DNA from: Nemertoderma westbladi
Taxonomy: Eukaryota > Animalia > Xenacoelomorpha
Direction: 5' to 3'
Length of the DNA: 64,000 nucleotides
Assembly: GCA_032718475.1 (NCBI GenBank)
Contig: JAUCBJ010004959.1
Location: forward strand, 24,305-88,304
Position numbers and translations under genes: made by a program. Every line of letters starts with the position of its first letter. Within the stretch, counting starts at the first letter, position 1. The notes below the pieces were generated by a model that was not told where the DNA came from, made no database searches, and saw only the letters and a program-made list of their open reading frames with translations. Below are positions 1,769-61,641 of the stretch, piece after piece.

Positions 1769-1801
1769 AAGAAAGCCGTAAAGAAAGCCGTCAACGACGC
1801 A

Positions 1802-31888: not shown

Positions 31889-32532
31889 CTTTAACCAAGA
31901 ATTTCAATATGGCCAGCCAGCACTTATTTGCCAAACTGCTATTGCGGTGAAACGTTTTAGTAGCTTTCTTATGTTATATACAGTACAAAGATATAGCGGC
32001 TGGTACATAGAGAGAAATGATAAGAGCTCACTAATTGGCTGTTCCCACAGATACAGTACTGTAGGTTAGTTTTATGCACTGAAGGTACGCATATAGTCAG
32101 GCCGCCCGACCATAGTCTAGTCTGCACATTATGTAATCAAATAGTACTACCCCACGGGGTGGGGGGGGGGGGGGGGGGGGGGGGGCAGCTTACTGAACAT
32201 GGGTTTATTGATATTGAATTGCAAAGCAAAATATGAACTGAGGGATTTCCCGCCGAGTCCTGAACCAGTTTCTGAAGTCAACACGCTAGGATATATCGAA
32301 TTAGTCCCGGGTCACACAAGGATATTAACTTCCAACTCTACTGTTAGTTGGTCTGGGTGGTCAAGCTGCCCAATCGCAGTTACAATCCAAGAAAAGCGGG
32401 GTCATCACAATCCAAGAAAAGCGGGGTCATCACACTCCAAGAAGGCCAAATGGGGGGGGGGGGGGGGGATTATTACAGTAGGCCTAGAGTAAGTAAAACA
32501 ACGTAAGAGAGAAGCATTTCGAATTTAGGCTC

Positions 32533-33076
32533 TGTTAGCTTATTCAATCCCGCTAACACCCCATAAAGTTAAGCCGATAAGCAATATTGGGGGCCACGAG
32601 ATTGGGTAATCACCAACTCGTGTCACCCCAACAAAATGGGAAGGAGAAACACAATGAGGGTCAGGGGCCAAACCCCTAACCCAGAGAGAACAGGTGGAGT
32701 GAACGGGAACACTCCAAAGGGCGCCAACAAGGGTATCAACCAATCAGAGGGGGGAAAGGCATCGATTAGGTAGAGTAACAAGGCCAACCCGTGCAATATA
32801 GCCAGTTGGCAGTAATCATTTCATTCAGTTATCTCAGTATCATATTGGTGCTAGTTAGGTTAGTTAGTTTAGCTAGGGAAGGACCGGGACTTTAATTACC
32901 GTATCCCGCCTTCCGTATACGACAACATTATCCATATCTATACCTATATCTATATACCCGTACAACCGATTATTATATACGACGAACGACACGAACTCTT
33001 TTTACCTTTCACACACGGCGGGGACGCGTGAACTAAACAACCGGATAAACCGGGATCCTTCCTGGATCCCGTCACA
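32533..33076 (+). repeat. 5' LTR (544 bp)
   Basis: TGTTAGC...CCCGTCACA. About 4 substitutions versus the 3' LTR by eye. TATA-like AATATA near 32795 and Inr-like TCAGTT near 32825. Confidence 0.97.
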
Positions 33077-33150
33077 GTAATTAAATCTCAGAGCTGCCGC
33101 CCTAGCTAGCTAAACCCAGCGACTACCAGCCACCAATCGAACCAAGCGAG

Positions 33151-36100
33151 ATGAGTCAGTCGGGAGAGACGACGCCGACGCGGACCCCGGACGAAGAATT
33201 AACGATCCGCGAGGCCGCAACCAGGCGGTACAGGCCCACAACGCCGGACCCATCGGTAACGGGTCATCCGGCAGCTCAGGATGAGGGGGGCCGCCTGGAA
33301 CCCGAGGTCGAGCCGAGAGAAGGAGAGAGCGAGACGGAGGGAGACGGAGACGAGTCGACACGAGACGTGGGTCGACGTACTGATGTCGCCGGCCAGCCAC
33401 AGGCCGAGGGCGACGAGCGGCCCACCGAAACGGCGACGGTGGGGCCGACGGTACGACGCCGGACCCGGAGAGACGGAGGAGATGTCGGTACCGATGTCGC
33501 CGGCCAGCCACAGGCCGAGGGCGACGAGCGGCCCACCGAAACGGCGACGGTGGGGCCGACGGTACGACGCCGGACCCGGAGAGACGGAAGAGAGGTCGGC
33601 GACGAGGACGTCGGGGTTTCTGATCGACTTCGACGGGCCTACAACGCGACCCAGAAACTGTTAAAGGAGGCCAAAGAGGGGGCGAAGATAGACGAGGTGA
33701 GACTGAGGAAACGACTAGGTGAGTCGAATAGACACTTTTATTATCTAATGCGCTTCGGGCAAAGAGAACTGGCCAAGGAGAGAGCGAGAGGGGTTGCCGA
33801 GGAACTGTATGACTTATGGCGGTGTAGGGGTATGGAACCTAGCGTAGTGTACGTAGGGCCATACTTAGTCGATGCCCGGGGAGTAAAATTAGTGGGTTGG
33901 GAGAGACCTGAGGAGGACGAATCCGAGGTTAACCCCGAGGATTCGGCCTCGTCGGTCGGAGGAAGTTCCGGGAGGCGGGGGAAAGTTAGTAGGATCGGGG
34001 AGGCGGAGGGAATCCGTCTACAACCGATAAGTCTGCTACATCCTCCGTGAAAGAAAGACGGGTGAGAGAGATAAATGCCACGTACCGTCTCGATTTAATA
34101 GAGCAAGGTCAAAGGGAAGTAGGTAGACGGTTAGAGGAGGGGAGAGTGCTGCTAGAGAGGGAAATGGCGTTGATTAAGGAAACCGGAGAGAGGGCCGACG
34201 AGAAGCCTTAGGGAGTGTGAGGAAGTAGGGAGGAAGGAACAAGAAGAGCGCGAGGCGAGAGGGAAAAATGAGCGCAAAGAGCGTGAGGCGGAACGTAGGG
34301 AACGTGAGGCGAAAGAGGAAAACGAGTGCAAAGAGCGCGAGGAGAGAGAGGAAAACGAACGCAGAGAGCGTGAGGCGAGACGAAGGGAGGGGGCTAGAAG
34401 AGAGTTGGAATTGGCCGAACGGGACGCACGGGAGTGTAAGGAGAGAATGGCAAGGAAGGAGTGTGAGCAAAAAGAACTAGAGAAACGTCAAGGTGAGCTT
34501 ACAGGGTACAAAGCTATACACGCGCGCGAACGGGAATTGGCGGGAATAGGGGCGTCTGAGAGTGGGGCTAGCTCGAGTATTTTCGAGGAGCCAGGGGCCG
34601 TGGATACATTTATTAATACCCCACTTACAGGGACCGCACGACAGACCCAAGACTGGTGTGACCGTACGGGCGGGGGGGGGGGGGTAATAATAATGCTATA
34701 GTAGACGTCATTAATATTAATAGTACCGTATTGGATAACCCTAATCCTTTTATTGCAGCAAATAATACTTTACCTAGTAGCAGTGATTTAAATTTAAATA
34801 CAAATAATAATTTCAATTTAAATGTGCAAAATAATCCGAATAATAATTCGGATGGTTTACATGCCCGCCTAGGGGGGTTAATTCTGTTTGCACTTTTAAG
34901 ACCTTTGGCAGTTTAACCCGCCAAATCTATATGTCTTCTAGGTTATAAATCGACTTTAGGCGAGAGAAGAAAGGGAACGCAAGGAGCGTGAGGCAAGGGA
35001 GGAAAAGGAACGCAAGGAGCGTGAGGCAAGGGAGGAAAAGGAACGCAAAGAGCGTGAGGCGGAACGCAAGGAGCATGAGGCGAGAAAGGAAAGTGAACGT
35101 AAGGAGCGTGAAGCGAGGCGAAGGGAGAGTGCTAGGAGAGTAGCAGAGTTGGCTGAGCGGGACGCGCGGGAGTGTGAGAGGAGAATGGCAGGAGCCGAGC
35201 GAGACCATGAGGAATTAAAGAGACGCCAAAGTGAGCTTGGGGAACATAGGGTTAGACGCGCGCACGAGCTGCAACTGGTGCGGGCGGGGGCGTCTGAGAG
35301 CGGGACTAGCTCGAGTATTTTCGAGGAGCCAGGGGCCGTGGATACATTTATTAATACCCCACTTACAGGGACCGCACGACAGACCCAAGACTGGTGTGAC
35401 CGTACGGGCGGGGGGGGGGGGGGGGGGGTAATAATAATGCTATAGTAGACGTCATTAATATTAATAGTACCGTATTGGATAACCCTAATCCTTTTATTGC
35501 AGCAAATAATACTTTACCTAGTAGCAGTGATTTAAATTTAAATACAAATAATAATTTCAATTTAAATGTGCAAAATAATCCGAATAATAATTTAAATTGA
35601 GAAAACAATAATAATTCAAATAATTTAAGTAATGATCCAAGCCCGAATTTACAAAATAATTCAAATGATTTTGTTTCAAACGAACAAATTAATTCCGTTT
35701 CCAATATGGGTGCTATTAACGTGAACACGTCGGGCGTGTATGGCCAGGCAGACGAAGGCCTGGTAGGCCGTATAATTGGTAGGCCGGATGTGGCGGGATT
35801 GAGCCAACCCAGAGAGGGCCTTGTAGGCCACGTAGTTGATAGGCAGGGAGTGGCTGGGTTGGGTAGACCCAGCGAGGGCCTGGTAGGCCACGTAGTTGGT
35901 AGGCAGGGAGCGGCTGGGTTGGGTAGACCCAGTGAGGGCCTGGTAGGCCACGTAGTTGATAGGCAGGGAGTGGCTGGGTTGGGTAGACCCAGCGGGGGCC
36001 TGGTAGGCCACGTAGTTGGTAGGCAGGGGGGTAGAGGGCCTGGTAGGCCACGCAATAGCAGAGGGAGAGGCGGGGGTGAATAGACCCGACCATGGTAGGG

Positions 36101-37174
36101 TTGATGTGTCGACGAGAGAGGGATATGGTAGCGGGGTGAGAGATAGTTAAGTTAGATGTGGCGAGTGGGGGGGGGGGGGGGGGGGGGGGGCTACAAGAGC
36201 CCCACAACAGCGAGTTAGCGGCGAAAGGGGGGGGGGGGCAGAGAGTGCTCCACAGCCGTCAGCGGATAATGCGCGGGCCGAAATAGGTAAACCGCAACAC
36301 CCAGCGACGGAGAGTAATAGGGGGATTGCGAGTATCCCCAGCAGCGTGCGACCGAGCAGAGAGAGACAGGTTGACGTCGTGAGAGGGCGGACGAAGCGTC
36401 GAGCCCGATCAGAAGAGGGAAGAAGAACAGTGGGGTTTAACCAGGAGGTCGACGAGAGATCTCACGAGCGAGAATACTACACTGAAAGGAGAAGAAGAGA
36501 AGACAGTAGTAAAAGTATCGCCGTGAACGATAGAAGAGCAAGGACGGATAGCGAGCCGTCGGTAGTCGAGATGAGAACGGAGAGTCAGTGGGGTCGGACT
36601 CCGGGAGATTGCCGTCGCCCCGGAGAGATGCGACCTGGTGAGGTACATTACGCGCTGATGGAGGGGTACGCGATGTACCGGTACGAAGACGAGAACAGTA
36701 GAGAGGGAGGTCGAAGAGAAACTTTCCGACGGAATGTACCTACCGATCGAGAATACGGTAGCCGTGGGGAGGACTATTCGAGAAGAATAAACTTCGATCC
36801 CGAACGACACATGCAGACTGTAGGACATACTGTAGGCCTTACTGCACATACCATAGGCCATGCTGAGAGAGGCAATGTAGGCGATAGGAGAGCGCGGACA
36901 ACGGGATTAAACCCGGAAGTCGCGGAATACATACCGGCGAGTAGGCCAGAAGCTGATAGGCCTATACCGGTACCAGTACAGCAGTATGACTACAGCATGC
37001 AGGGGCATAACATATACCCAGGGGAGGGGGGAATTATTGCGGATAGGTGTATGGGCCCCAATATATTAACATCAACCCCAGTACCAAACATACCGGTGGG
37101 GGGGGGGACAGGGTGACATTCCCCCATCACAATATCAACAATATACCCCGATAGGAGCAAGAACAACAAGACCC
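33151..37174 (+). pseudogene. Very long, frameshifted N-terminal extension of Gag
   Basis: ATG at 33151, VNPEDSASSV motif, E/R/K coiled-coil repeats, Asn-rich tract and 60-bp GLVGHVV repeats. Frames break at G runs (34672, 35410, 36167, 37098) and at stops. Confidence 0.65.
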
Positions 37175-40100
37175 TTGGATGAAAATAGGTCGTGTGACAC
37201 AGAGATATGGAGGGGGCCGCTACCCCCGATGACATACCCAAGTCAAAGAAAATCAAGAAATAGGACGGACGAACCGCACCAGACAGGAGAAACTATACAG
37301 CACCCATCGAATCCATTGGAAGCGCAGGCGATGGGGATGGCCACGTTGATCGATGCGTTGAAAATGAGGATCGAGTTACCACCCGTGGAACCATTCAAAT
37401 TCGATGGGAGTAGGCCGGAAGAATATCTACAGTTTCGGCGCATGTATAGTAACGAAATACTAACAAAAAACTTGACGCAGGCGGAGTGCCTAAAGTATCT
37501 GCAAGTATACACGGGAGGCCCAGCATACGATATCGTGAGGCAATATCAAGGCATAGAGGGCGGCTTCACGACAGCATGGCGGGCACTGGACAGGGAATAC
37601 GGGCACCTGGCCAAGATCATCAGACAGACACTGAGAGGCATAACATCGGGTGGCCTACAGGATAATCCCGTTAGCATTAAGACGTTCGCTAACAAAGTCG
37701 AAAAGGCGCTAATCGTGCTGAAGACGCTAGACGCGCCATACGAGCTCAACGCGTCCAATAACATCACCACGATAGCGCAGGCACTACCGAACTGGCTGTG
37801 CAACAAATGGAGGAAGATCGCTTTCTCCACTCGAGACAAAAAGGGTGTGGAACCGGGTTTAGAAGAAATGTCAAGCTTCTTAAACTACGAGGCTGAACTA
37901 ATAACTGACCCAGTCTATAGCGAAGAAAGCCTGGGAAAGGGACCAAAGACAGATTACCATAGACCGAAACCAGAGCACAATACGTCAAACGCATTACCGA
38001 GGCTCAGGCAATCATTGCCATATGCAGCGACGCAGGGGACTGCAAGTCCACAGATAGGCGAAAGTAAGACCACACCATGGAACGGACAGGGGAACAATAA
38101 CAACACGAATAAATATAACCCCAGTACGTCCAGTAGGCCGAATCCAAACAATAAGAATAGTAGGGACTTTGGTACAAACGCAGCTGCGATACGCGATGCG
38201 CTGTATAAGGAGGGCTACGACCCAAAGAGCAAATGCCAGCTACACGCAAATGCGCTTCATCAAACCATGAACTGCAGGTACTGGCAAGCGCTACCTAGGC
38301 AAGATCAGATAGACTATGCGTTGAGCAATAAAATCTGCTCGCGATGTGTGATGAGTGGACATAGAGCAAGGGAATGCAAGGAGAAGCCAGTCAAGTTTGG
38401 TCAAAGGAGAGGCCAAACGATGGCAACGAGCACAGTAGGGGCAAAGAAGAGAGGAACGGTGTTACTTGGAGTAGTACCCGTGCGAGTGATTGGGGAAGGC
38501 AATCGATCAGTAACAACACTAATGCTGGTTGATAGTGGAGCTGCCTTCACATTAGTCGAGGAATGGGTGGCCGAAGAGATAGGATTGAGAACGAGGCCAA
38601 GCAGAATGGCGGTAACAACCATCTCTAGCAAAGATGAGATCCTGGAGATGAGAACAGGACGGTGCGCAATTGCAGCGGTGGCACCGGGATGCGACTATGG
38701 GGCAACCATCGACCCCATCCAAGTGATAGAGTCAATTAATATCAATGCCAGGCGGCCAACCAACATCGAGGTCAAGCAATATAAATTCCTGGATGACATT
38801 GACTTCTCAATCCCAGATGTGGACGTTAGGAAGGTATCCATCATAGTAGGAATGGATTGCCCAATGGCCCACGAAAGAATGCAAACGGTCTTCGGCGAAG
38901 ACAAGCAGTGTGACCCGGTGGCGATATTAACACCATTCGGGTGGACGCTGAGTGGCCCAATCAAGAGCAAGATACCATTTAGGATGTCGGAGACATCAGG
39001 ATGCATGTTCGCGGGAACAATGCAGGAAATGTGTGATGAGGGAGCAGAGGAGCAGCTTAAAAGACTGCTCAGACAAGATTTCGAGGGACTAAAAGAGACC
39101 GGGGTCGGGACCTCGGTAGAAGACAAGCTGGCTTTACAAAGCGTGGAGGAATCGATGACATGCAATGAGGGGCGGTATACTATAGGAATGGTATGGAAAC
39201 TACCGAAGATACCGCTGCCCGATAATAGAGGGATGGTACTCACGAGACTCCGCAAGCTGAAACAAACACTAAAACGGAGCCCCGAGAAGAATGAGTACAT
39301 CCACAGAACGATTAAGAAGTACGTCGAGAAAGGATGGGCCGTGGAGTTACCGGTCGACGAGCCGAACACGGACAGGACATATTACCTGCCACTCCGCGTG
39401 GCTTTAGACCCAAAGAAAGGTAAACTGCGGATGGTAGTCGACGCATCGGCAAAGACCAACGGAAAATGCTTAAACGACTATCTGTTAGAAGGCCCAAACA
39501 TATACAACTCGGGCATAGAGGTCCTACTTAGATTTAGGAATGGGAAACACGCCTTCACGTGTGACATAGAAGGCATGTTCAACCAAGTCCGTGTAACGGA
39601 GGAAGATAGCGACAGTCAGCGCTTCTTATGGTATAACGGCGAGGAAGAACCGTCGATAATACCAGCATATAAGATGGTAGTACAAAACATGGGAGCCAAG
39701 TCGTCTTCATTTACGACGACTATGGCAGTCAGAGACACAGTGAAGGGGAAGGAAGATAGATACAGCACTAGGGCCGTCGATATGATTCGACGTGGCTTCT
39801 ACGTAGACGACGGAATGGAGTCTGGAAATACGGTTAAGGAGATACTGGACACGGGGCGCGAGGTTCGCGACATCCTAAAAGGATCCGGCTTTAACCTGAC
39901 CAAATTCCAATCCAGTTCGGAAGAATTTATCAAGGCGATAGAGGACAAGAGGCCAGAATCGACCATGGATAATCCCACAACAGCCAAAGGGCAGGACATG
40001 GCGAATAAGAGAACAGAATCTCAAAAGAAGGCATTGGGAATCGTGTGGAACAGAGAGACAGACGAACTGAAGTATCAGCTGAGCCAGGAGGGCGCAGACA

Positions 40101-42440
40101 TCCACACGAAGAGGGGATATGTATCGTATATAGCAAGGATATACGATCCCCTAGGCCTAGCATCCCCATTATTAGTCACGGGGAAACAGATACTCAAGAG
40201 AAGTATACAAATTGAAGGATGAGTGGGACGTAGAGGTACCAGAGGAAATCAAGAAACAGTGGAGTAAGTGGACAGGAGACTTGGAGAAGATGGGAACATA
40301 CAGCATGCCACGAGTGTATTTCCCAGATGGGAACATGACGAATCTGGACCTACACATGTTCTCCGATGCGTCGTTGGAGGCGTACGGAGCGGCACCCTAC
40401 TTAGTACAACAAGAGGGGGCTCATAAGCCCAGACTAGCCTTTAGCAAAGCAAAGTCAACACCGCCAGATTCAGCATCAGTTCCCAAGTTAGAATTGACAG
40501 CTGCGAGACTAGGAGTTAGAGCCACAGCCTACCTAGTGGATACTATTCCCAACATAATGGAGACACACTACTGGACGGACTCCATGGTAGTACTTGGTTA
40601 GCTACATAACGAAAGAACGAGATACCCAATATTCGTCGCAAATAGAGTGGACGAAATAAGGGCGACCACAGAACTGGAAAGGTGGCACTACTGCCCAACG
40701 GACGAGAACCCAGCGGACTTGTTGTCGAGGGGCGTGGTACGCCACACTTTCTTGAAGAAGGAAGTATTGTGGCAATATGGGCCACAATTTCTGAGCGATA
40801 AGGAAGCCTGGCCGCCGATGAGAAAGATGGACCCGGGCTCAGAAGTAGTGTCAGAGGGAGAAGGGGGAGATTCAGAGGGAGAAGAGATATACTCCCAGAT
40901 GGTGAGGGAGATTAGGGACGTGCAACCAAGACGAGAACTGTGCGATAACCTGACGGATAAACTCCTCAGCTACAGTTCTAGTTGGTATAAGACCAAGAAA
41001 TTAGTGGCGTACTGGAGAGCCTTCGGGAATTTCCTCACGGGAGTTGGCAAGGACAAGAAGATCAGGACAACCATAGATCTGGAAGGAGCGGCCAAGGCAG
41101 TGATCCGCTATGAACAACGGAAGAACTATGGTGACGAGGTGGAACGCGTCGGTAACCAACAGCACCTCCGACGGGACAGCGAGCTGATTACGCTGTCGCC
41201 ACAACTTAATGACGACGGGATTCTAGTAATGAACTCTAGGGTGGGATACAACAACAGCATAATCGTACCACCGAAACCCATCATCATTCCAACAGGATCG
41301 CCAATAGTTCACCAGATTATCTGGGACTCCCACAAGTCGATATTGCACGGGGGCACCAACCAAACCCTCACCGAGATAAGGAGGACCTTTTGGGTCAAAC
41401 AGTTGAGGAAGAAGGTAAAAGCGGTGGTGGGGCAGTGCCAGACCTGCCGACGAGCGAAGAAGGAGCGAGCCATACAAGAGATGGCGCCACTACCAGCGAG
41501 TAGAGTAAGACAGCACGACCTGCCATTTACGCATTGCGGTGTGGACATGTTCGGGCCGATAAAGATAAAGGTGATGCGGCACACGGAGAAACGCTACGGT
41601 ATCATCTTCGTATGTAACAACACGCGGGCGGTAGGGATAGAACTCGCCCAAGATGCAACCGCATCAGCATTCATTAATGCCTTAGAAAGGTTTAGAGACC
41701 GCAAAGGTGGGACAATCGCAGTGATATACAGCGACAACGGCACCAACTTTGTGGGCGCAGAGAATGAGATGGCAGAAGCCTTGGACATCTTGGAAGGGGA
41801 GGAAGTCAGGGCGGCCATGAGACGACGACAAGTAAAGTGGGAGAGAAGGACGCCGTATGCACCACATACACTAGGGTGCGTCGAGAGATTGGTGGGCAGT
41901 TCAAAGCGTCTAATGACGAAGCTAATGAACACCCACATGGTCACTGAGGACGTCTTACGGACAGTGCTTGCGAAGTGCGAGGGGATCATTAATAGCAGAC
42001 CGCTATACCCGGAGAATGATGACCCTGAGTCACTAGACGTGCTGACGCCTAGCCATTTCCTGATGGAAAGGCCAGCGACCATCGATATGCGGGGTGTAGA
42101 CCCAGATGACATACACTCCCGCCAGAGTTGGAAAGTCGCTAAAGCAATAAGCGCAGAGTATTGGAGGAGGTGGGTCGAAGAATACCTGCCCACACTCCAT
42201 AAAAGAAGCAAGTGGAGGAAGCCAAATAGGGAGTTAAGAGAGGGAGATCTCGTAATCGTTACGGATGATACTATCATCAACAACCAGTGGCGGTTGGCGA
42301 GAGTTGTAGGCACTTACTCCGACGAGGATGGAAGAGTCCGATCGGTAGAAGTGCGGATAGGTGGTAAGATAGGTGCGAAGGACAGAAAAACCTACAGGAG
42401 AGCTGTAGGGAAATGCTGTCTGTTAGAAGGGGCACCTTAG
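37175..42440 (+). pseudogene. BEL/Pao Gag-Pol (capsid-like domain, Zn knuckles, protease, RT, RNase H, integrase), disrupted
   Basis: Gag LPPVEPFKFDG; knuckles CQLH....H....C and CSRC....H....C; protease LVDSGA; RT FYVDD; RNase H MFSDAS; integrase H-H-C-C, GVDMFGP, YSDNGTNFVGA, GCVERLV and YWRRWVEEYLPTL. One-base frameshift near 40198 and TAG at 40599-40601 in place of a conserved Trp. Confidence 0.95.
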
Positions 42441-42559
42441 TGGAGTTAGTAATGTGTTTAGTCGTCCAAGTTTGGACTGAGGGGGGTGGGATTGAGGGCG
42501 AGACGCCCTTCCCACACATAAAAAAAAATAAAAAATAAAAAAATAAAATAATAGTACAT

Positions 42560-43130
42560 AGTAGGTACGCAGTTAGTAGGCAGAAGTTAGTCAGTAAGAA
42601 GGTACGTAGTACCTAGAGTTAGTTAGTTAAGAGGTACATAGTACCTAGAGTTAGTTAGTTAAGAGGCACGTAGTAGTACCTAGAGTTAGTTAGTTAAGAG
42701 GCACGTAGTAGTACCTAGAGTTAGTTAGTTAAGAGGTACGTAGTACCTAGAGTTAGTTAAGAGAAGAGTTAGAGGGTACGTAGTACCGTTAGTTAGAGAG
42801 TTAGAGGGTATGTAGTACCGCTAGTTAGAGAGTTAGAGGGTACGTAGTACCGTTAGTTAGTTAAGAGAAGAGTTAGAGGGTACGTAGTACCGCTAGTTAG
42901 AGAGTTAGAGGGTACGTAGTACCATTAGTTAGAGAAGAGTTAGAGGGTACGTAGTACCGTTAGTTAGAGAAGAGTTAGAGGGTACGTAGTACCGTTAGTT
43001 AGAGAGTTAGAGGGTACGTAGTACCGCTAGTTAGAGAGTTAGAGGGTACGTAGTACCGTTAGTTAGACAAGAGTAAGAGTTAGAGGGTACCTAGTACCGT
43101 TAGTTAGAGAGAGAGTAAGAGGTAGAAGGG
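42560..43130 (+). repeat. Tandem array (~30-40-bp variable units) between pol and ORF3
   Basis: GGTACGTAGTACC(G/T)..AGTTAG(AG)AGTTAGAG units. Confidence 0.9.
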
Positions 43131-43597
43131 TATATAAGATATAGATATTAGTTAGCAGTTAGTAGCGAGAGGGGGGCATATGAGTACAGCTGGGTAAATC
43201 GTGTGGCCACGCGACGCATACTGCTGTACTGCACAGGCCCACAGAGTAGGTCAGAATGTGGATTAGAGAATAGAATAATCCATAGGCAATAGTAAGTAGT
43301 AGGACAGTAGAATTAAAATTAAAACTAAACTAAAAATAAATAGAATAGGGCTGAAAGTTACAAATTATGGCAACACTAGGAAAGTTATTCTGGAACATAA
43401 TAAATGTAACGGACAGAAATCGAAATTAGGGTGTATTTACTAGCTTCAGAATTAATTAGTAATAATTTAGGCTAAAAGGCGCAGTTAAGTAAGGAATAGG
43501 CCATTATCGGACCGTACAGAATATCTTAGATACATCACTCATCTGTATTGCGCCTTGGTAAGGCACCACCTTACAGGTGAGCGAGTGAGTGTTCGGA

Positions 43598-46144
43598 ATG
43601 GCGAGCAAATTGATCAGAAAGAGAAAGGCGGAGTCAGGAGGAAAGGAGATACTGGTGGATTTCACCGAGAGGCATCCGGAAGAGAAGACGAGAGGATACT
43701 ACGAGAGGTTGGAAAGGGGTCACGCGGCACGAGCGCTGCAGGATCACTTCCGGGAGATGCACGAACAGCGGCTGGTCGGGACCTACGGGACGCCGTCGCT
43801 GGACAACGCGATCTTCCAACACTTCCACTACGTGGTGAAAGGGGACGAGGCGAAGTTCGGGATTCCAAAGTACCCGAGGGAATCACCGAGGAAGGACTGG
43901 AAGAGATTCATAGAGTCCGTCAACAGGGGAGGATATATGATCCTAGACGACGAGGGAACCGTGAAAGACGAGGAGGGTTCGAGACGAGGATCGGCGGGGT
44001 CAGCCAGGACCATACTCCTACATTTGGCCGCGCCAAATGGGGACATCTTCTTATTCGATCTAGGAATGTATGGGAAGAAGGACGGGCCGAAATTAAATCG
44101 GTTACCGAAATCGGTACAAGTCTTGGTAAGAGAGAATTCGACGACGAAAGTGGGATCGGCGATTTGCGAGGACGCGGAGAGAATCATCGGTCCGGACGCC
44201 ACCAACCTCCTGGATATGCAGAAGGTCTTTATGGCTATGACGGCACCGGATGGGTTGGGGGTAGTCGAAAACACAGGCCAATGCGGGGTGGTGGCAATGG
44301 GCCAACTATTGGGGCTCGTGTGCCACAAACCGATGGACTGGGGGAAGTTCAGGGAAGAATACGGAGCAGAACTAGCGAACTCGCTAAAGTGGGGAGCGAG
44401 ACCAGGAAAGCAAGAGGTATATCAATTCCGCAGAGGAGCGATAAAGGTATATCAGAAGCGATATATCCTGCAGGAAGACTGGATGATGATAAGTTTGCTT
44501 AACTTATTTATGACCATGGTTATTGAGAGGGAACCAGCGGCATTTCTGTTATCGGGATCACCCCTAAGCTACAGGAGAGCCTTTAAAATGGCCTTCGACG
44601 GTCTGGTAGACCACCCGGGGCTGAAGGGCGAGTCGGTGTACTACAACAGCCGACATCTGGTAGACGGGGAGATAGATACGCCGTATCAGAGATGGGAGCA
44701 GCTAGAAACGGATAGACGAGAAGCAAAGCGACTGGAAGAAGTCGCTAGACGGGAGAGGATAGAAGCAGAGGAGAGGGAAGAGGAGGCCAGGACGCAGAGT
44801 TACGGCTTCGAGGAACAGGCAGGCTTAGACGAACTTCATTGGACTTCGTCAGGGAGTTCGGGGGAATCTCTAGGGCGAGAACTGGGATGGACGGTGGGAT
44901 CACCGAAACAGTCGACGTCGGGGTTGCAAGAGATGCCCATACCAGCGGGCGCCGAGGGCGACCAACCGCCAAGGAGGTTGAGGGAGTTAGAGGGATGGAG
45001 AGCTATGGGCGAGAGCCAAGGCGGGAAGGGACATAGTGGATCCATCGGGATACCGGGGTTGGAGCCACTGCCAGAGGAGGAGGAGGACGACGACGAGTTC
45101 GGAGAGATGCCGCCCATCGAGAGGATAGGCCACTCGGACACGGACTGGGTTGGCGGAAGGGTGGTGACGGCCAGTGGGGCGAGGGCCTTCTGGAACAGAT
45201 CCGGCAAGCGGACCTGGGTGCACGAGGAGCCGGCGATGGATTTCGCGGGGAGCACTATCAGGTTGGGCGAGCAACCGGGGACGGCACCACGGATAGTATT
45301 CGGGGAGACGATGCCCGAGAGGGGCAGAGAGATCGACGTAGACAGAGACACCAACGTGGAGAAGTTCGCCTACCAGCGACTCCACAGACCGCGGAGATCG
45401 CTTGGGACGAAGGACGACGTGGGGCGGGAGACATTGGTACTCGGCTGCGACTACTGTGGCAGGCAGACCCACCAGGAAAGGAGCTGCTTGTACCGGTTCC
45501 AAAAGGGAACCTTTTGTCTCTACTGCCGAGAGCCGAGCCACAGGATGGGGGCGTGTCCACGGTTGCATAACCGATGTCCAAAGTGCAACTTTCGGGGACA
45601 CTACGGACGCCAGTGCGACTGGATGGATGACGAAGAGAAGTTCAGAAGATTCGAAGAGTGGGCCGACGTCGGGGCCATGACGCGCCAGCGCATGAAGGCC
45701 CAGGAGTTCAAGTGGGGTTTCTTCCTTATCAATCAGGAGGCTCACATGGAAATCATAAAGCGGAGGCTACCGTTTACCTATCAAGAGGTAGCAACGGCGG
45801 CGTCGTATGCCGGAGTGATGAACACACAAAGATATTTGGACAGGTGGACGCCACAGAACCGAGGGGAGTTTAGGGATTTCTTGGCGGAGCACGTGCCGCG
45901 AGCAATGAAGATGATCCTATGGGACGACACCAGAGGGAGACAACAGGGCCACTCTGAGGGGCCACCGGCGAAGCGATATCGGGCACTAATAACACCAGTG
46001 CCCAAGGAGCCAACAACCGGAATCAGCAGGGAGGTGGCGGCGAAAGTCCGAAAGCAGAAAGCGGATCCCAGAGGAGCGGTGGTAACCAAGAAACGACCCA
46101 GGGAAGAGGACGCCAGGGGGAACTATCCCCAGAGGAACAGATAG
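43598..46144 (+). CDS. Retrotransposon ORF3: DEDDy (WRN/EXD/MUT-7-like) 3'-5' exonuclease plus three CCHC zinc knuckles, 848 aa
   Basis: ExoI YMILDDEG (43934); ILLHLAAPNGDIFLFDL; LPKSVQVLVRENSTTKVGSAICEDA (ExoII); NLLDMQ; YQKRYILQED (ExoIII, 44462). Knuckles CDYCGRQTHQERSC, CLYCREPSHRMGAC and CPKCNFRGHYGRQC at 45446-45616. Confidence 0.8.
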   Translation: MASKLIRKRKAESGGKEILVDFTERHPEEKTRGYYERLERGHAARALQDHFREMHEQRLVGTYGTPSLDNAIFQHFHYVVKGDEAKFGIPKYPRESPRKDWKRFIESVNRGGYMILDDEGTVKDEEGSRRGSAGSARTILLHLAAPNGDIFLFDLGMYGKKDGPKLNRLPKSVQVLVRENSTTKVGSAICEDAERIIGPDATNLLDMQKVFMAMTAPDGLGVVENTGQCGVVAMGQLLGLVCHKPMDWGKFREEYGAELANSLKWGARPGKQEVYQFRRGAIKVYQKRYILQEDWMMISLLNLFMTMVIEREPAAFLLSGSPLSYRRAFKMAFDGLVDHPGLKGESVYYNSRHLVDGEIDTPYQRWEQLETDRREAKRLEEVARRERIEAEEREEEARTQSYGFEEQAGLDELHWTSSGSSGESLGRELGWTVGSPKQSTSGLQEMPIPAGAEGDQPPRRLRELEGWRAMGESQGGKGHSGSIGIPGLEPLPEEEEDDDEFGEMPPIERIGHSDTDWVGGRVVTASGARAFWNRSGKRTWVHEEPAMDFAGSTIRLGEQPGTAPRIVFGETMPERGREIDVDRDTNVEKFAYQRLHRPRRSLGTKDDVGRETLVLGCDYCGRQTHQERSCLYRFQKGTFCLYCREPSHRMGACPRLHNRCPKCNFRGHYGRQCDWMDDEEKFRRFEEWADVGAMTRQRMKAQEFKWGFFLINQEAHMEIIKRRLPFTYQEVATAASYAGVMNTQRYLDRWTPQNRGEFRDFLAEHVPRAMKMILWDDTRGRQQGHSEGPPAKRYRALITPVPKEPTTGISREVAAKVRKQKADPRGAVVTKKRPREEDARGNYPQRNR

Positions 46145-46847
46145 GTTCCCAGGGCCGGGGGAGAGAAACTGAGACTTGGACGTGGTACGCCTGGAAGGCG
46201 CCGCGTGGGACGTACGAACTATTAAGTACAAATTAAGCTGATGCAAATAATTAAAATAAGTGCAATTATATGTACGTACGTTGTGATCAGTAGTTTAGCA
46301 ATAAAATATACGTTCGGAGTAAGTACTATAGTCATACAACCTTTCTCAATTAGCTACTGGGACTGGGGGGATAACTGACTATGGCACTATGGACGAGACA
46401 CCAGACGATTTCACACTTCTTGAGTGCGACGGCACAAGAGGGGGGGGAGATTCGTCAGAAGGGATGAGGTAGTCGAAGTGGGGTTGAGGGACGGAGTAAT
46501 GGTGCGAAGTGCGGAGAGAGTGCGGACGCAATTCTAATGTGGGGGGGGGAGAATAAGAGGCTGAGTGAGGGACGAGGAGGTCCGAGGGTATGCGAGAGTT
46601 AGGGTGAGAGTGGAGAAGAGATAGGGCGAAAATGTTGGGGAAACAAAAGTCGCGTGAGAGGTTAGCGCGATCGGCCCGACATGGGACGCCAGGCATACAG
46701 GGTAGAGTTATCATACCCATAGGGAGCGGCCTGGAAAGCCGGCTCCGAGAGAAAAGAATTCCACCCCACACCCGATACTAGATCGGGATCCAGCGGGATT
46801 GTAGCGCACTTAAGGTGGATGCTATCCTCTCACCGGGAAGATAGCAT

Positions 46848-46856
46848 GGGGGGGAG
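46848..46856 (+). other. Polypurine tract
   Basis: GGGGGGGAG immediately 5' of the 3' LTR. Confidence 0.85.
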
Positions 46857-47400
46857 TGTTAGCTTATTCAATCCCGCTAACACCCCATAAAGTTAAGCCG
46901 ATAAGCAATATTGGGGGCCACGAGATTGGGTAATCACCAACTCGTGTCACCCCAACAAAATGGGAAGGAGAAACACAATGAGGGTCAGGGGCCAAACCCC
47001 TAACCCAGAGAGAACAGGTGGAGTGAACGGGAACACTCCAAAGGGCGCCAACAAGCGTATCAACCAATCAGAGGGGGGAAAGGCATCGATTAGGTAGAGT
47101 AGCAAGGCCAACCCGTGCAATATAGCCAGTTGGCAGTAATCATTTCATTCAGTTATCTCAGTATCATATTGGTGCTAGTTAGGTTAGTTAGTTTAGCTAG
47201 GGAAGGACCGGGACTTTAATTACCGTATCCCGCCTTCCGTATACGACAACATTATCCATATCTATACCTATATCTATATACCCGTACAACCGATTATTAT
47301 ATACGACGAACGACACGAACTCTTTTTACTTTTCACACACGGCGGAGACGCGTGAACTAAACAACCGGATAAACCGGGATCCTTCCTGGATCCCGTCACA
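46857..47400 (+). repeat. 3' LTR (544 bp)
   Basis: Same length and termini as the 5' LTR, followed by GGCTC. Confidence 0.97.
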
Positions 47401-48933
47401 GGCTCCTACTTGTAAGTTGAAAGCTGGTATCCCTACTGTGGCATTGACAATCAATTAGAAGTTATTATTTACCTATATTGCGAAATCATTCAAATAGCTT
47501 TTCTTTAGCCAATGATGTTTTTGTGAGATGAAATTCGAATGTAATACGATTTTTTCGCAGGTTTTCACATTTGGTCGACTCTTTATACAGTAGGCATTTT
47601 ATATATGAAGACTACGTTTTTATTTAAATTTATCTTTATGAAGGGTCGATTATCTTCCTTACAGTATAACCCGTTCAGATACTAATTTGTTTATTGTTTT
47701 GGTTTTATTCAGCCCTCGAACCGCGTAACCTCGCTTTTTTTAGACAGTTGGAAACTGGATGCAAATCCCATCTCGACGAATTAATATCTCGCCCCAATGT
47801 TAAATTGCCAATTTGGGGAAAGGAGCAGTTTGCTTTGTATTGGCATGTTAGTTAATCTAAACACAACAATAAACGAGAGTCAATAGAACAGGTTACTGTT
47901 TTATTTTCGAGTTTCATCAGCTGTTATTTGAGTCGATTTCCCCCTGAAGAGGGATTAATTTTTATTGCGTCGAAAGTCTCCCAATCTGCGGTTTTTCGTG
48001 AAAACCTATAGTTCTTCCTTCACATAGGGTACTGCAAAGTGAAATATAACATTAGAAAGTTTAACAACACAATAATATAAATTTTATAGCAATACAAATA
48101 AGTTTTTTGCAATAATATTACCTACTTTTCCATCAAAAAATAATATTGAATTAAAATAGGCCTAGTAGACTCTACTGTAGACTAAAAGAACGTTTAAAAA
48201 AAGTTAATAAATCGAGCACTAAATCACTCAACTCATATTTTTAGAGTGTCAACATCCCCTAAATTTGATCATTGCAGTTATGTGTGAATTGTATCAATTT
48301 TAGTGTATTTGTCAATATGGCATCAAGGCGCTAATGTTGACTTGTGCCGGACTTCACATTTTCTGCAATTTCTCAGAAACTATTCGCTCTATGAATGTTT
48401 TGAAGGTGTCTACACCAACTAAATCGGTCATTGCGGTTCTAAAGAGCATAATATCAATGCAGTAGGAATACTAGAAGTTAATCATCATAAAAACTGGGAA
48501 TATGACTCACTTGCGCCAAGGCATTAGAGTGGAAAATGGCCTTGTGCCTGTGGAAATATTTCCTGCATCCCCAAATCAAAATTTTGGTATCTATCGAAGT
48601 TTGGACCCATTTGATGACATCTGACAGTCTGATGTGCGAACTGCTCCCGAGTTGAAATTCGGAAAAAAGTTTTTTTTGGACCACCCTAATGAACAACTGT
48701 CAGACTGTAACGTACTGCTGTACTGTGTACTGCAGTGTATGTATTTATGTACCGTAGGTACAAGTTGTAGTTCTGTAGTTGGTTGGTATGGTTATGGTAC
48801 ATACCGGAATTCAACTGCAGAATTGTCCATTTTCTGATACCAATATAATCTGATAATCTGATACTAGATACTAAATAAGCGAAAGACTAGGCCTAAGACT
48901 TAAGAAGACACATACAAGAGCAGATTCCATCCG

Positions 48934-49554
48934 ATGGCATCCACCAACGCCCCCGGCGCTCGAACTAATCCACGCCGAGTGCCCCACCCATCCGAACTCG
49001 GTCTCCCGCATCCCTCCGTTATCGGAATGAATCCCGTCGTCTTTAACCCGGAGATAGAACGCCAAATGCGCGTTCCCGACAGAATACAAGTCGGTAAGGA
49101 GCAAGTCCAAAGCTTCGCAGATGATTCCTCTTTGCGTCACTTGAGGGAGCAAGAGAACACCGCTACTAAACAAAGTTCTATTATGCAAATCCCCGAGAAA
49201 ATAATTCTCGCCGAGGAAGATATTGACGACGACAACGTGGCTAAACAAAATTTGGATCACGGACACGGAGACGCCAACTATTACACGGAGCCTCTGGAAA
49301 CGCCTCCTGGTGGACCGAACGGTCACCTACCTCGACGCGATGACGTCACGACCCCACATTACCCGGGTTACGGCTCCAAGGAGTATTACAACCCGCCCCA
49401 GGAGCAGTCGTTGCAGACCCAGATGTTCTCCCTGCGGCAGCGCGTAAACGTTTTGGAACGTCGGGAAATTGAACGAACTAATCGGGAATTCTATCACTTT
49501 ATACTCACTGGGTTTGTTGTGGTCATTTCGCTCCATCTATTAATGCGTCGGTAG
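48934..49554 (+). CDS. MFF: Mitochondrial fission factor, single coding exon
   Basis: Two Drp1-binding repeats (MRVPDRIQV, MQIPEKIILA), LETPP, coiled coil LRQRVNVLE..E.ER..RE and a C-terminal transmembrane anchor ending in RR. Confidence 0.9.
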   Translation: MASTNAPGARTNPRRVPHPSELGLPHPSVIGMNPVVFNPEIERQMRVPDRIQVGKEQVQSFADDSSLRHLREQENTATKQSSIMQIPEKIILAEEDIDDDNVAKQNLDHGHGDANYYTEPLETPPGGPNGHLPRRDDVTTPHYPGYGSKEYYNPPQEQSLQTQMFSLRQRVNVLERREIERTNREFYHFILTGFVVVISLHLLMRR

Positions 49555-54134: not shown

Positions 54135-54273
54135 CAGCTTCGCATACAGGTACATCTGTATGTGGGTAGTCGTAGTAGGCCCATTCAGTCGCATTTTTCT
54201 AAATAAACAAGCTCGACTCTCGACATAGCATTGCTGCATGGGTTCCTCGGTATTAAATCTTTAGGCAGTTAGG

Positions 54274-55503
54274 ATGGCGCTGAATTTGGCAGCTAAAAGG
54301 GCCGCCATTTCTAATCCGATGCTTAAAACGAGAACATTATTAATACCAAACAAAGTCAAACAAAATCGGAAGTTCTGCTTAAGTTTGCTAGACAATGATC
54401 CGGAGAAAAACTACGAATTCGTTGTAAAGCGAATGATTGACAACCGGGCGACCTTAGAGAAAGAAGTTCTGGAATCGGGAGTTCTAGAAGGCAAACCTGA
54501 GTTGGAGATTGTCGACGACGAACACCGAGTTTATCCTGTAGAATCGAAGGTTAAAGCTATTCGTTCAGAACCTTTGTATCAATTCAGAGATAGTAGATCT
54601 ATCCTGTGGGAAGGACCAAAACAGGGTCTATATCTAACCAAGTCTATAATAGTTGATTACGATCTTCCAGCATCCATTAAAGGGTTACGGGGCCGTTATG
54701 AAGTCCCAATACAAGACGCGATGCTACGTAACGCTATAGTCCACGCGAAACTGACAGACAACCAGTTGGAGCGGGTCCCGGAAGATATATGGATCGGGAA
54801 TCTTGTCACTAGTGTCCTCAGACTCACAGACACCCTAGGGAGGTGGATGCCGGAACTATGGAAACGGGGCGGCGCTGAGGGAGTGCGGACTCGTGTGCGG
54901 TGGACACGAGAGGGGAAACTAATCGAAGTCTTCGGGAAGTTCGGTAGAGTTCTCACCTGCGAGCAGCCGTTAGCGCCAATAATATCGGACTCTCGGGAGA
55001 TTCTCTCTACTGAATCTCGTAGATTCGAGAGTTTCTACCCCGCCAGCCCTACGGTAGATCTACACAGAGTCTACGACTACTCCGATAACTACGAGATATC
55101 CACTGGTTTCTCCTCGGGTTATAAGAACCCGGCGATGCACACCCAGTTCGTCGCCCCGTTCCATCGCCGCTTCCCCAACTCGCCCTGGTCCGATACCCCG
55201 ATTCTCTTCGCCCGGGCGCTATTCGCCGCATTCTCCGGGGCGTTGTCTCGCGCCCTAACTCGCCCATCCGACCTCCCCGTGGTCACTCAGGCCATCGCCA
55301 CCGACGGTAGATTGTTCCACTTTCTCGTCTTCCAGTTGAACTCCCTCGATCTGGATTCCACCGACACCGGGGTTCGCAATATGGTCTGGTGGCTCCCCGA
55401 CCAGGCCTTGTACGAACGCTGTAACTATGGCGACTCGCAACCTGTTAACTACAACCCCGAAGTCTTTCAGACTATTATAGCTATGCTAAGTAATGGCGCC
55501 TAG
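54274..55503 (+). CDS. MRPL37: Mitochondrial ribosomal protein L37 (mL37), single coding exon
   Basis: PVVTQAIATDGRLFHFLVFQLNSLDLD....VRNMVW...Q.LY, G.KQ.L.LTKS and FYPASPTVDL match the mL37 family. Basic N-terminal presequence. Confidence 0.9.
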   Translation: MALNLAAKRAAISNPMLKTRTLLIPNKVKQNRKFCLSLLDNDPEKNYEFVVKRMIDNRATLEKEVLESGVLEGKPELEIVDDEHRVYPVESKVKAIRSEPLYQFRDSRSILWEGPKQGLYLTKSIIVDYDLPASIKGLRGRYEVPIQDAMLRNAIVHAKLTDNQLERVPEDIWIGNLVTSVLRLTDTLGRWMPELWKRGGAEGVRTRVRWTREGKLIEVFGKFGRVLTCEQPLAPIISDSREILSTESRRFESFYPASPTVDLHRVYDYSDNYEISTGFSSGYKNPAMHTQFVAPFHRRFPNSPWSDTPILFARALFAAFSGALSRALTRPSDLPVVTQAIATDGRLFHFLVFQLNSLDLDSTDTGVRNMVWWLPDQALYERCNYGDSQPVNYNPEVFQTIIAMLSNGA

Positions 55504-57751: not shown

Positions 57752-58053
57752 ATACTTCCTTGGTTTAGGAAGAAAACGTTCGTTTATTTGTTTTCAGCCA
57801 ACTGTCAGCAGTGTCAGGTACCGGTACTGTTCACTGTTTCAATATACTGGACTACTCATTATTGTACCAATTAAATCTTGGTAATTTGCGCGTTTCGTAG
57901 TTAGCTAGCACTTTTATTTCGGTAGGTTTGTTTTGTACAACCGTATTGTAATGGTGTAAAGTAACTAATCGACTTTCTTCAAAGTATAATAAGTATGTAC
58001 CAGTACCACTACGTTTATTAAAATATTAAACTTGCTATAAAATAAATAAGAAG

Positions 58054-59187
58054 ATGGAACCACCGCCGCCTCAACCTGAAGTTAGAACAAGGCAGAAGAT
58101 GTGCTACGGAATACTGCTCGTGGTTCTTATTGCCGTTACCTTTTCCACCAACACCCAAATAGGGAAGTCCACATTGACTAAAAACTTCCAGGCCCCCTTA
58201 TTTATGATTTGGTTCACCACAAACTGGGGTTGCTTTTTATTCCCGATCGTCTGCGTGCCAAGACTAATCAAACGACGACGAGATCTGTCTCTATTCGATA
58301 TGTACAGAGAATCCGCCACTGTGTTTTCCGTAAATGGGTTAACCTTTGAAAGTTTCCTTTTCAAAGTTGGTCTGTTCAGTGTGATCTGGCTGGTGGCCAA
58401 CGTCACTTACATGAAAGCGTTAGAAACCAAAGCAGCAACAGACGTTACTGCAATATTTTCCGTAAATAACGTTTTCGTTTACATCTTGTCGCTGATAATT
58501 CTAGGAGAGTCTGTTCTCGTTTTAAAGTTATGTTCAGTGCTTCTCTCTGTCGGAGGTGTTGTTCTTATTGTGTCGGAAGATGGATTTAAAGGTCCTTCCG
58601 CCCTTTCTGTCTCTTTGGTTTTGTTGGCTGCGTTTCTGTCAGCGCTATACAATGTTTTATTCAAGAAAATAATAGGCGACGCATCTCTTTATCAAGTGGC
58701 TTTGTTTATTTCTATACTCAGTATATTTAATATGATTATTTTTTCTCCTTTGGTGTTGGCGCTAAAAATGTCTGGAACAGAACATTGGGAATGGAGTGAT
58801 ATTCCATGGGAGATGCTGATGGGTATGTCAGCCACCGGTCTAGCTTTTAATTTCTTTGTCAATTTTGGTGTTATTTACACCTACCCGCTGTTTATTACGA
58901 TAGGAATGCTAACTGGAATACCTATCAACGCTGCCATTGACGCTATATTTAGAAGCGTTTATTTCGGGGCGCTAAAAGCTGGCGGATCGGTTTTGATAAT
59001 ATTTAGTTTTGTTTTGTTGGTTTTGCCGAATTCGTGGCATATTAAATCGTGCAGCCTAATGAAACGAATGTGTTGTTGCCGGTCTCGTTGCGCTGAACGA
59101 AACGAAACTGTTAATAGGAGTATTACTAATGAAGAAGTTCAAACAGATAACGAAGTTACCGAAACCACCAGTCTTCGAAAGTTTTGA
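58054..59187 (+). CDS. SLC35F3: SLC35F3/F4-like DMT/EamA transporter, single coding exon
   Basis: F.APLFMIWFTTNW..FLFP, NVTYMKAL....ATDVTAIFS.N..FVYILS, SALYNVLFKK and FNFFVNFGV..TYPLFITIG....IPINAAID, with about 10 hydrophobic segments. Confidence 0.88.
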   Translation: MEPPPPQPEVRTRQKMCYGILLVVLIAVTFSTNTQIGKSTLTKNFQAPLFMIWFTTNWGCFLFPIVCVPRLIKRRRDLSLFDMYRESATVFSVNGLTFESFLFKVGLFSVIWLVANVTYMKALETKAATDVTAIFSVNNVFVYILSLIILGESVLVLKLCSVLLSVGGVVLIVSEDGFKGPSALSVSLVLLAAFLSALYNVLFKKIIGDASLYQVALFISILSIFNMIIFSPLVLALKMSGTEHWEWSDIPWEMLMGMSATGLAFNFFVNFGVIYTYPLFITIGMLTGIPINAAIDAIFRSVYFGALKAGGSVLIIFSFVLLVLPNSWHIKSCSLMKRMCCCRSRCAERNETVNRSITNEEVQTDNEVTETTSLRKF

Positions 59188-60822: not shown

Positions 60823-61641
60823 GGAATGAGCCTGTTACATAGATATCGCAACAACTTGCGTTCAGGCGCATAAAGCCTGTGATTCACTTGCGACTTACAT
60901 GCGTTACGATGCAAAAATATCGCAAAAATCTGTTGGTTGTGATATTTGTGTAATTTTATAATAATACTGAAACTGTCTAGGGACATAAAATATGATAGGA
61001 TGGCCTTCTGTATGTAGTTGATTATTCCATTACTAACTGTTTGATACTATGGGCTACCATACCATCTGCCTACTTATCTTACATTACACTCTCTAGACAT
61101 AGAACATTATTAGACATCTGTATGAATCAATACTATAAATGGTTGGTTTATATACAGGATAATACAAACATATTAGAATAACCATGATACACTTTTAATC
61201 ATTCCCTATAATTTTCAATTCTATAAAATATATTAATATAATCTCTGTATTTGACAGCCATATTAGATAATTTATATTCACCAATTTTATATTTTAAATC
61301 AATTTATTTCTTAATAGGCAACTTTATTTTAATTAATTATCTTTAGTGTAATTAAAAACATGCGATTCACAAGGGAATTTACTGGAATCATGGTGTAAAA
61401 TATGCGTGAAATATGGTGTGAATCACATGCGCGGAATCGCGTCCGTATTTCTAACATGCGAATCACAAGAGTTTTATCGCTGCAGTATTTAATGAGCCAT
61501 AATAAAAACGCATGGCGCTTTAATATCACTTGCGGGACGCATGCGCATTTTCACTGGGTTATGTAACTCTAGTAACGCCTAATCTTATAGGTAACTTTAA
61601 CGCCTAACATTATGTAACGCTAACCTTAAACCGAGTTCAAT

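Follow-up and report, generated by a model that had tools for sequence, protein, structure and literature searches.

A likely DEDDy-like exonuclease joined to a zinc-knuckle array in the third gene of a BEL/Pao-type retrotransposon from Nemertoderma westbladi

A complete long terminal repeat (LTR) retrotransposon of 14.9 kb is present in the 64,000-nucleotide stretch of Nemertoderma westbladi DNA analysed here (the window; contig JAUCBJ010004959.1, positions 24,305 to 88,304), and it encloses a third open reading frame (ORF3) behind its pol region. The element is of BEL/Pao type, and ORF3 likely encodes a DEDDy-like 3'-5' exonuclease, with Glu at a position where the family has Asp, joined to an array of zinc knuckles; this would extend to BEL/Pao-type elements the exonuclease ORF3s known from bdelloid rotifers. 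Among the copies of the family ORF3 is under purifying selection.

ORF3 runs from an ATG at 43598 to a stop codon at 46142-46144 and encodes 848 amino acids (aa) with no internal stop. When the same DNA is shuffled 200 times, the longest stop-free frame averages 180 aa and reaches 394 at most. The original prediction, made from the DNA letters, had described an uninterrupted sense frame between the integrase and the polypurine tract, inside the LTRs and the target-site duplication, and its coordinates are confirmed; the frame begins downstream of the integrase stop (42440). The 1.16-kb spacer in between is non-coding and repeat-rich, and it holds a TATA-like TATATAAG at 43131 and candidate splice acceptors predicted at 43449 and 43576. 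With its repeats, TATA-like box and candidate acceptors, this spacer indicates that ORF3 is a separate gene. The protein has a basic N-terminus and a maximum 19-residue hydropathy of 1.23, and hydropathy over the whole of ORF3 (no dedicated predictor) gives neither a signal peptide nor a C-terminal transmembrane anchor, in agreement with the original claim that both are absent. An envelope reading of ORF3 is ruled out because there is no hydrophobic anchor.

About 300 residues lie between the exonuclease-like part and the knuckles, and they include a linker (aa 401-600) with a net charge of -13. The three CX2CX4HX4C knuckles, which had been reported behind an acidic linker, begin at aa 617, 640 and 660, and the tail (aa 781-848) has a net charge of +11. 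The segment after aa 673 matches no known family in Pfam, NCBIfam or the ESM search; with aa 580-790 as query, the ESM search returns just CCHC-type clusters at scores below 0.9. Its FEEWAD..G..TR..R...WGF pattern (45617-45730) presumably resembles unnamed invertebrate transposon-linked proteins, a resemblance that the searches do not support. Two studies contain contigs in which 45612 is joined directly to 46168 (depths 386 and 421), so that the portion of ORF3 that follows the third knuckle seems to be missing from a minority of the copies.

The DEDDy reading is supported by three partly independent tests, based on ESM features, a profile of cellular domains and the catalytic columns, which agree on both family and register. 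In the ESM feature search with aa 60-370, PF01612 is found on 24 of the 30 matches; the best of these scores 0.94, shares 170 features with the query and has the family on 34% of its cluster members. The top score of the search, 0.95, belongs to an unnamed match, and six of the 30 matches are unnamed fungal clusters. Against a glocal profile of 128 cellular DEDDy domains, run over three gap settings, 1-4 of 1000 shuffles and none of 86 natural control windows score as high as ORF3. In the MAFFT alignment, D117, E119, D192, Y289 and E293 fall on the five catalytic columns, and no shuffle out of 300 fills all five (D, E, D, Y, E). The ExoI D-x-E (D117 and E119) occupies invariant columns, the ExoII Asp is D192 within KVG-x5-D, and ExoIII reads Y289-I-L-Q-E293-D294-W295, with E293 in the canonical Asp column and D294 one position further, which is the atypical form noticed originally. 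All motifs quoted in the original prediction are present in ORF3. Residues ~96-310 very probably form a highly divergent DEDDy-type exonuclease fold, and it is probable that the domain is catalytically active.

A number of results weigh against this assignment. Pfam and NCBIfam give no DEDD match to ORF3 even at an E-value of 10, PF01612 included, so that the Pfam search suggested for the domain came back empty. The hhalign probability is 0.14, which is not significant though the alignment is in the motif register, and hmmsearch with custom profiles is weak (2 of 500 shuffles at best). Separate profiles are mixed: the score is reached, per 100 shuffles, by 2 for the WRN-like profile, by 100 for the NanoRNase C-like, by 9 for RNase D and by 0 for the combined one. 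Of 43 conserved columns 11 are matched, a chance level that 184 of 300 shuffles attain; four of the five catalytic columns are reached by 7 of 300 shuffles, and Glu was allowed at the ExoIII column after inspection of the sequence. The ExoIII motif departs from Y-x3-D in having Glu in place of Asp, a change that may lower or abolish activity; a literature search for data on Asp-to-Glu ExoIII mutants found none. The AlphaFold model, also suggested as a check, is unusable from the single sequence (predicted local distance difference test score, pLDDT, of 31.9), and a borrowed alignment of 33 exonuclease rows raises it to pLDDT 56.5, with a best Z of 7.8 and a Foldseek E-value of 1.5e-3. The matches of this second model, RNase D, WRN, EXD1/2, Nibbler and the Trypanosoma brucei RNase D (TbRND), are discounted because the model is circular. 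Finally, the distance between nuclease and knuckles is about 300 aa versus about 29 in TbRND.

The fold claimed originally is supported by ESM, the glocal profile and the catalytic columns, but no standard library recovers it at significance. Its likeness to the motif order of WRN-exo, RNase D, EXD and MUT-7 holds for a WRN-like register; nothing specific to MUT-7, Nibbler or EXD1 is found, MUT7-C included. Because the Y-x3-D form of ExoIII is lacking and the family hidden Markov models do not match, ORF3 is classed as DEDDy-like and not as a canonical member of the DEDDy or MUT-7 families.

No relative of ORF3 is found in a protein set of 5.8 billion, either with the whole protein (7988 candidates of 466-1484 aa) or with aa 1-371 (3930 candidates of 204-650 aa), in 1.84 billion representatives queried with aa 1-371, or in metagenome or viral contigs. 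Searches of phages and plasmids with tblastn yield just chance matches (E-values of 2-5), and the PDB sequence search contains no exonuclease match, its best match being the TbRND knuckle array, which is non-significant (E-value 0.27) and confined to aa 616-673. A 40-column BLASTP match to Escherichia coli RNase D (pairwise E-value 7e-4) lies outside the motif register and is discounted. As a separate observation, the environmental proteins P0002, P0003 and P0009 each combine a WRN-like 3'-5' exonuclease domain with a PF02511, PF02391 or PF01257 domain.

Selection on ORF3 is seen in variants taken from public contigs, which are short, aligned to the element. Three runs, each from a different study, cover 30 of 30 bins of the whole element, and a fourth run covers 27 of 30. 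Over the first part of ORF3 (43598-44700), 2760 and 1743 contigs align in two studies, many of them less than 95% alike, with 30 of 30 bins covered in each and no indel listed. A one-off capture of a host gene is ruled out by these thousands of divergent contigs, and an assembly artefact by the complete coverage of both ORF3 and the element. Of the 93 variable sites in 43598-44700, the best 40 comprise 28 synonymous and 12 non-synonymous changes, against an expectation from transitions of 34% synonymous (p 3e-6). The sites were split by their share in run X1. At the 29 that segregate among copies, synonymous changes outnumber non-synonymous ones 24 to 5, which gives a ratio of non-synonymous to synonymous polymorphism (pN/pS) of ~0.11 (binomial p 8e-8; first 1.1 kb of ORF3), while the other 11, at which this copy stands apart from almost all the rest, give counts of 4 and 7 (pN/pS 0.89). 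Such a contrast is typical of a gene that selection purges while the element transposes and that drifts once a copy has inserted. The few sites listed elsewhere, 13:2 in the integrase and 6:2 in the linker and C-terminus of ORF3, agree with selection. Neutral evolution in sister copies, which had been named as an outcome that would count against the gene, is thus not what is found.

None of the 40 listed variants alters a catalytic codon, and the codon of E293 has a synonymous variant; the Glu is therefore the state of the family and not decay of this copy. One contig that crosses the flank of the element has a depth of 5, and a single ORF3 contig a depth of up to 253, a contrast that suggests many copies, with the caution that contig depth is not a copy-number measure. 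ORF3 and pol have depths of similar magnitude, although contig depth cannot rank genes. Run X6, which may be RNA and is labelled as another organism, shows a depth below 5 on ORF3 and was left aside. With LTRs that differ at 4 of 544 bases and thousands of contigs, the family looks young and numerous. The linkage of ORF3 to pol is known from this copy alone; a scan keyed on the integrase gave one 1459-bp contig (L184), which is too short for an ORF3.

The remainder of the element is of BEL/Pao type, as had been proposed, judged by its domains and ends. Pfam places DUF1759 (E-value 1.5e-9), an aspartyl protease, RVT_1, Peptidase_A17 (1.5e-28), Integrase_H2C2, rve and DUF5641 (2.8e-24) in this order in the frames upstream of ORF3. 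This protease, reverse transcriptase, RNase H and integrase order with Pao-type domains is that of BEL/Pao elements, and so are the TG..CA ends of the LTRs, the target-site duplication and the polypurine tract, which is G-rich. In this copy pol is interrupted, being split over three frames. The gag region holds, at 38234-38380, just two knuckle-like motifs, one of them atypical; BEL gag usually carries three. Directly after the 5' LTR (33077-33106) the sequence begins GTAATTAAATCTCAGAGC, not TGG, so that a TGG-type tRNA primer-binding site is absent. This fits a non-standard primer, but it may also be a lineage trait unrelated to ORF3; some Suzu/Sinbad-type BEL elements are presumably also without such a site. 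Some 4 kb (33106-37116) separate the LTR from the recognisable gag, with E/R-rich, coiled-coil-like frames, an internal duplication of ~0.74 kb, tandem repeats of 111, 60 and 33 bp and poly-G runs, and none of the five frames tested in this 5' region has a Pfam match. It is because of this region that the element exceeds the described BEL/Pao size range.

Table 1. Features of the retrotransposon and of ORF3, in window coordinates.
Feature	Position	Strand	Basis or remark
5' target-site duplication GGCTC	32528..32532	.	same 5 bp on both flanks
5' LTR, 544 bp, TG..CA ends	32533..33076	+	4 differences from the 3' LTR
Long 5' region, likely a degenerate gag N-terminal extension	33077..37069	+	interrupted E/R-rich and low-complexity frames, internal ~0.74-kb duplication, tandem repeats
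gag-pol frame 1: DUF1759 (BEL gag), knuckle-like motifs, aspartyl protease, reverse transcriptase	37070..40222	+	Pfam, ORFs
pol frame 2: Peptidase_A17/RNase H region; pol broken here in this copy	40176..40601	+	Pfam, ORFs
pol third piece: integrase (H2C2, rve, DUF5641)	40602..42440	+	Pfam, ORFs
Non-coding spacer: A-rich run, tandem repeats at 42585-43132	42441..43597	+	sequence inspection
ORF3, 848 aa, accessory gene under purifying selection	43598..46144	+	ORF, variant analysis
Likely DEDDy-type 3'-5' exonuclease domain, aa ~96-310	43883..44527	+	ESM, profile, catalytic columns
Acidic, likely disordered linker, aa 401-600	44798..45397	+	net charge -13
Three CX2CX4HX4C zinc knuckles, aa 617-673	45446..45616	+	motif
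Post-knuckle segment without known family, and basic tail	45617..46141	+	tail aa 781-848, net charge +11
Polypurine tract adjoining the 3' LTR	46846..46856	+	sequence
3' LTR, 544 bp	46857..47400	+	LTR pair comparison
3' target-site duplication GGCTC	47401..47405	.	flank comparison

As for function, we tentatively favour a selected accessory gene whose product, a divergent DEDDy-type exonuclease with knuckles, would act on RNA of the element's own cycle. It would be expressed from its own subgenomic message, made from an internal promoter or by splicing. Single-stranded RNA would be held by the three knuckles so that its 3' end is offered to the nuclease, in which D117, E119, D192 and E293, together with Y289, would likely form a two-metal site; the working mode would, by analogy, be like that of trypanosome RNase D. 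The substrate would be RNA rather than DNA, and the protein would not act as an envelope. Its action would mainly serve the encoding copy, by trimming the 3' end of the transcript, the primer or small RNAs on its ribonucleoprotein. The family is numerous and selection acts on its individual copies, so that a benefit mainly to the encoding copy seems likelier than a shared diffusible suppressor. The absence of a TGG-type primer site would also fit, because a non-standard primer would need a 3' end that has to be made.

A non-catalytic or weakly catalytic RNA adaptor is conceivable, though somewhat unlikely. Such a protein, resembling EXD1, Maelstrom or Egalitarian in its action, would bind the element RNA with its DEDD fold and knuckles and hand it to the transport, export or germ-granule machinery, or serve as a decoy, and it would substitute for env by helping the RNA into the germline. 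The Glu in the ExoIII Asp column, the long acidic linker and the basic tail all suit this role. Egalitarian has a role in transport, and the Egalitarian-BicD-RNA structure is among the fold matches of the circular model. Both EXD1 and Maelstrom derive from DEDD enzymes and are inactive but still bind RNA (PMC5408684). However, it is precisely the catalytic columns that ORF3 retains, the other conserved columns being matched no better than by chance; this suggests selection on the active site.

Beside a trimming of the element's own RNA or primer, the original prediction had proposed that the protein counters or mimics silencing by PIWI-interacting RNAs (piRNAs); a counter-silencing role is unlikely. 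A counter-silencing nuclease would trim or destroy the piRNA or small interfering RNA guides of the host, or compete with enzymes of the MUT-7/Nibbler type, and the family would be protected in this way. MUT-7 and other DEDDy enzymes that work in small-RNA pathways of the host do have the same fold (PMC5408684), TbRND trims small guide RNAs and has the same domain order (PMC7797062), and the young, numerous appearance of the family would suit an escape from silencing. But Pfam finds neither MUT7-C nor another small-RNA-pathway domain on ORF3, a shared suppressor should relax selection on each copy while pN/pS is ~0.11, and DEDDy ORF3s have no clear link to copy number in the available text of PMC5408684. 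The specific form, in which a knuckle-anchored, Glu-variant exonuclease destroys the small-RNA guides directed against its transcript and lets the family multiply, is similarly doubtful.

It is quite improbable that ORF3 is a DNA-directed enzyme, which would, while reverse transcription proceeds or ahead of integration, trim the 3' ends of the complementary DNA or correct mismatches. Its motifs read closest to WRN/EXD2-type domains, and knuckles can bind single-stranded DNA, but ORF3 lies outside the pol polyprotein, so that its product would need its own route into the particle. Processing of DNA 3' ends has been proposed for the DEDDy domain of Dada transposases (PMC3706591), but the sole solved exonuclease-knuckle protein works on RNA (PMC7797062). 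Least probable is an N-terminal domain that is not DEDD and has its motifs by chance, ORF3 being some other knuckle-bearing nucleic-acid-binding protein: the blank Pfam, NCBIfam, PDB-sequence and homologue searches, the non-significant hhalign result and the shuffled proteins that reach an ESM score of at least 0.9 in 4-10 of 100 cases speak for it, but the convergence of three partly independent tests on one family and register speaks against it.

In the remainder of the window, host genes appear as single long frames at 1754-4387, 48904-49554, 54265-55503 and 58030-59187, which encode an ankyrin-type UPA+Death protein with a 7-aa repeat, Mff, a PDCD9-family mitoribosomal protein and an EamA transporter. 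The genes that flank the element are of animal type, and the single long frames suggest an intron-poor animal genome. Two inverted arrays of a 15-bp unit, ~450 bp apart and resembling a foldback element or a miniature inverted-repeat transposable element, are located at 61624-62760. Long direct-repeat pairs, 94-99% identical, are found at 377-1486/5570-6687, where they flank the ankyrin-like frame, and at 12980-13705/21463-22182. Rfam gives one sub-threshold match, located outside the element.

What exonuclease ORF3s do in retroelements has been a standing question since 2017, when Rodriguez, Kenefick and Arkhipova described DEDDy ORF3s in the Juno and Vesta LTR elements and the Terminons of bdelloid rotifers (PMC5408684). 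The original prediction had pointed to these correctly, and they are repeated in two reviews (PMC6431247, PMC6338049). In the available text of the 2017 paper, the rotifer motif is altered to DEED, activity is undemonstrated, and roles in 3'-end processing of the element RNA or in silencing are proposed; the variation test covered env and GDSL ORFs and not the DEDDy ORFs, and knuckles are reported in gag and pol, not in ORF3 (PMC5408684). The present element extends the arrangement to the BEL/Pao type, and its knuckle array suggests a testable mechanism of substrate capture. The clear purifying selection indicates that ORF3 is needed for something in the spread of the element, and no relative of its protein is detected in the large collections searched. 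If the element's own RNA or primer is the target, an additional step in LTR replication would be at hand; if host small RNAs are, an animal transposon would have an enzymatic counter-defence, which is rare.

Like its rotifer counterparts, ORF3 is a separate, non-membrane ORF behind pol, in the env position and inside the LTRs, and it is DEDDy-like with one altered acidic residue; the function of both is predicted. Unlike the rotifer ORF3s, which show strong HHpred homology, the DEED motif and a low copy number, the present one is far more divergent and has its Glu at ExoIII. Juno and Vesta are lineages of Ty3/gypsy type, while the element described here is of BEL/Pao type and has three CCHC knuckles and measurable purifying selection on ORF3. 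Rotifer ORF3 sequences are absent from the matches in the protein homologue searches with ORF3.

For Belpaoviridae, a length of 4.2-10 kb, LTRs, a polypurine tract, a pol of protease, reverse transcriptase, RNase H and integrase, an 18-nt primer site that matches the 3' end of tRNA-Arg or tRNA-Gly, and an env-like third gene are described in the ICTV profile (PMC8742986). The present element shares the LTRs, the polypurine tract, gag, the pol order and a third gene after pol, but it is 14.9 kb long, its third gene is not env-like and this copy has no TGG-type primer site. An env-like gene is the sole kind of third gene mentioned for BEL/Pao in the available text of PMC3118150; the word exonuclease is absent from PMC6238403 and occurs in PMC11599104 just within one reference title. 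A literature search found no exonuclease ORF in BEL/Pao, a weak negative that leaves Repbase, Dfam, GyDB and supplements outside its scope. The novelty suggested for the fusion with a knuckle array holds to this extent within BEL/Pao, but the architecture as such is known from Trypanosoma RNase D (PMC7797062).

Dada elements also encode a DEDDy exonuclease, but they are DNA transposons in which the domain is inside the transposase and all four acidic residues are conserved (Kojima and Jurka, PMC3706591). With the PF01612 domains of WRN-exo, EXD2, MUT-7/Nibbler and EXD1, ORF3 shares the order and register of ExoI, the LxxLA strand, the KVG..D of ExoII and the Q..Y of ExoIII. It differs from them in its low identity (13-22% to 33 aligned WRN-like domains), in having no Pfam match, in the Glu at ExoIII and in the absence of MUT7-C, helicase or HRDC domains; a mut-7 homolog (P0028) carries PF01927 (MUT7-C), for which ORF3 has no Pfam match. 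The closest parallel in domain order is TbRND, a mitochondrial guide-RNA trimmer (D80, E82, D145 and D230; PDB 7C42) in which four CCHC fingers behind a short linker bind single-stranded RNA upstream of its 3' end, full cleavage being dependent on them (PMC7797062). The likeness is one of order alone, a DEDDy exonuclease followed by tandem CCHC knuckles. Since ORF3 has three fingers, a far longer spacer and is encoded by a mobile element, it differs from TbRND in each of these respects, and the pairing of the two domains is probably convergent.

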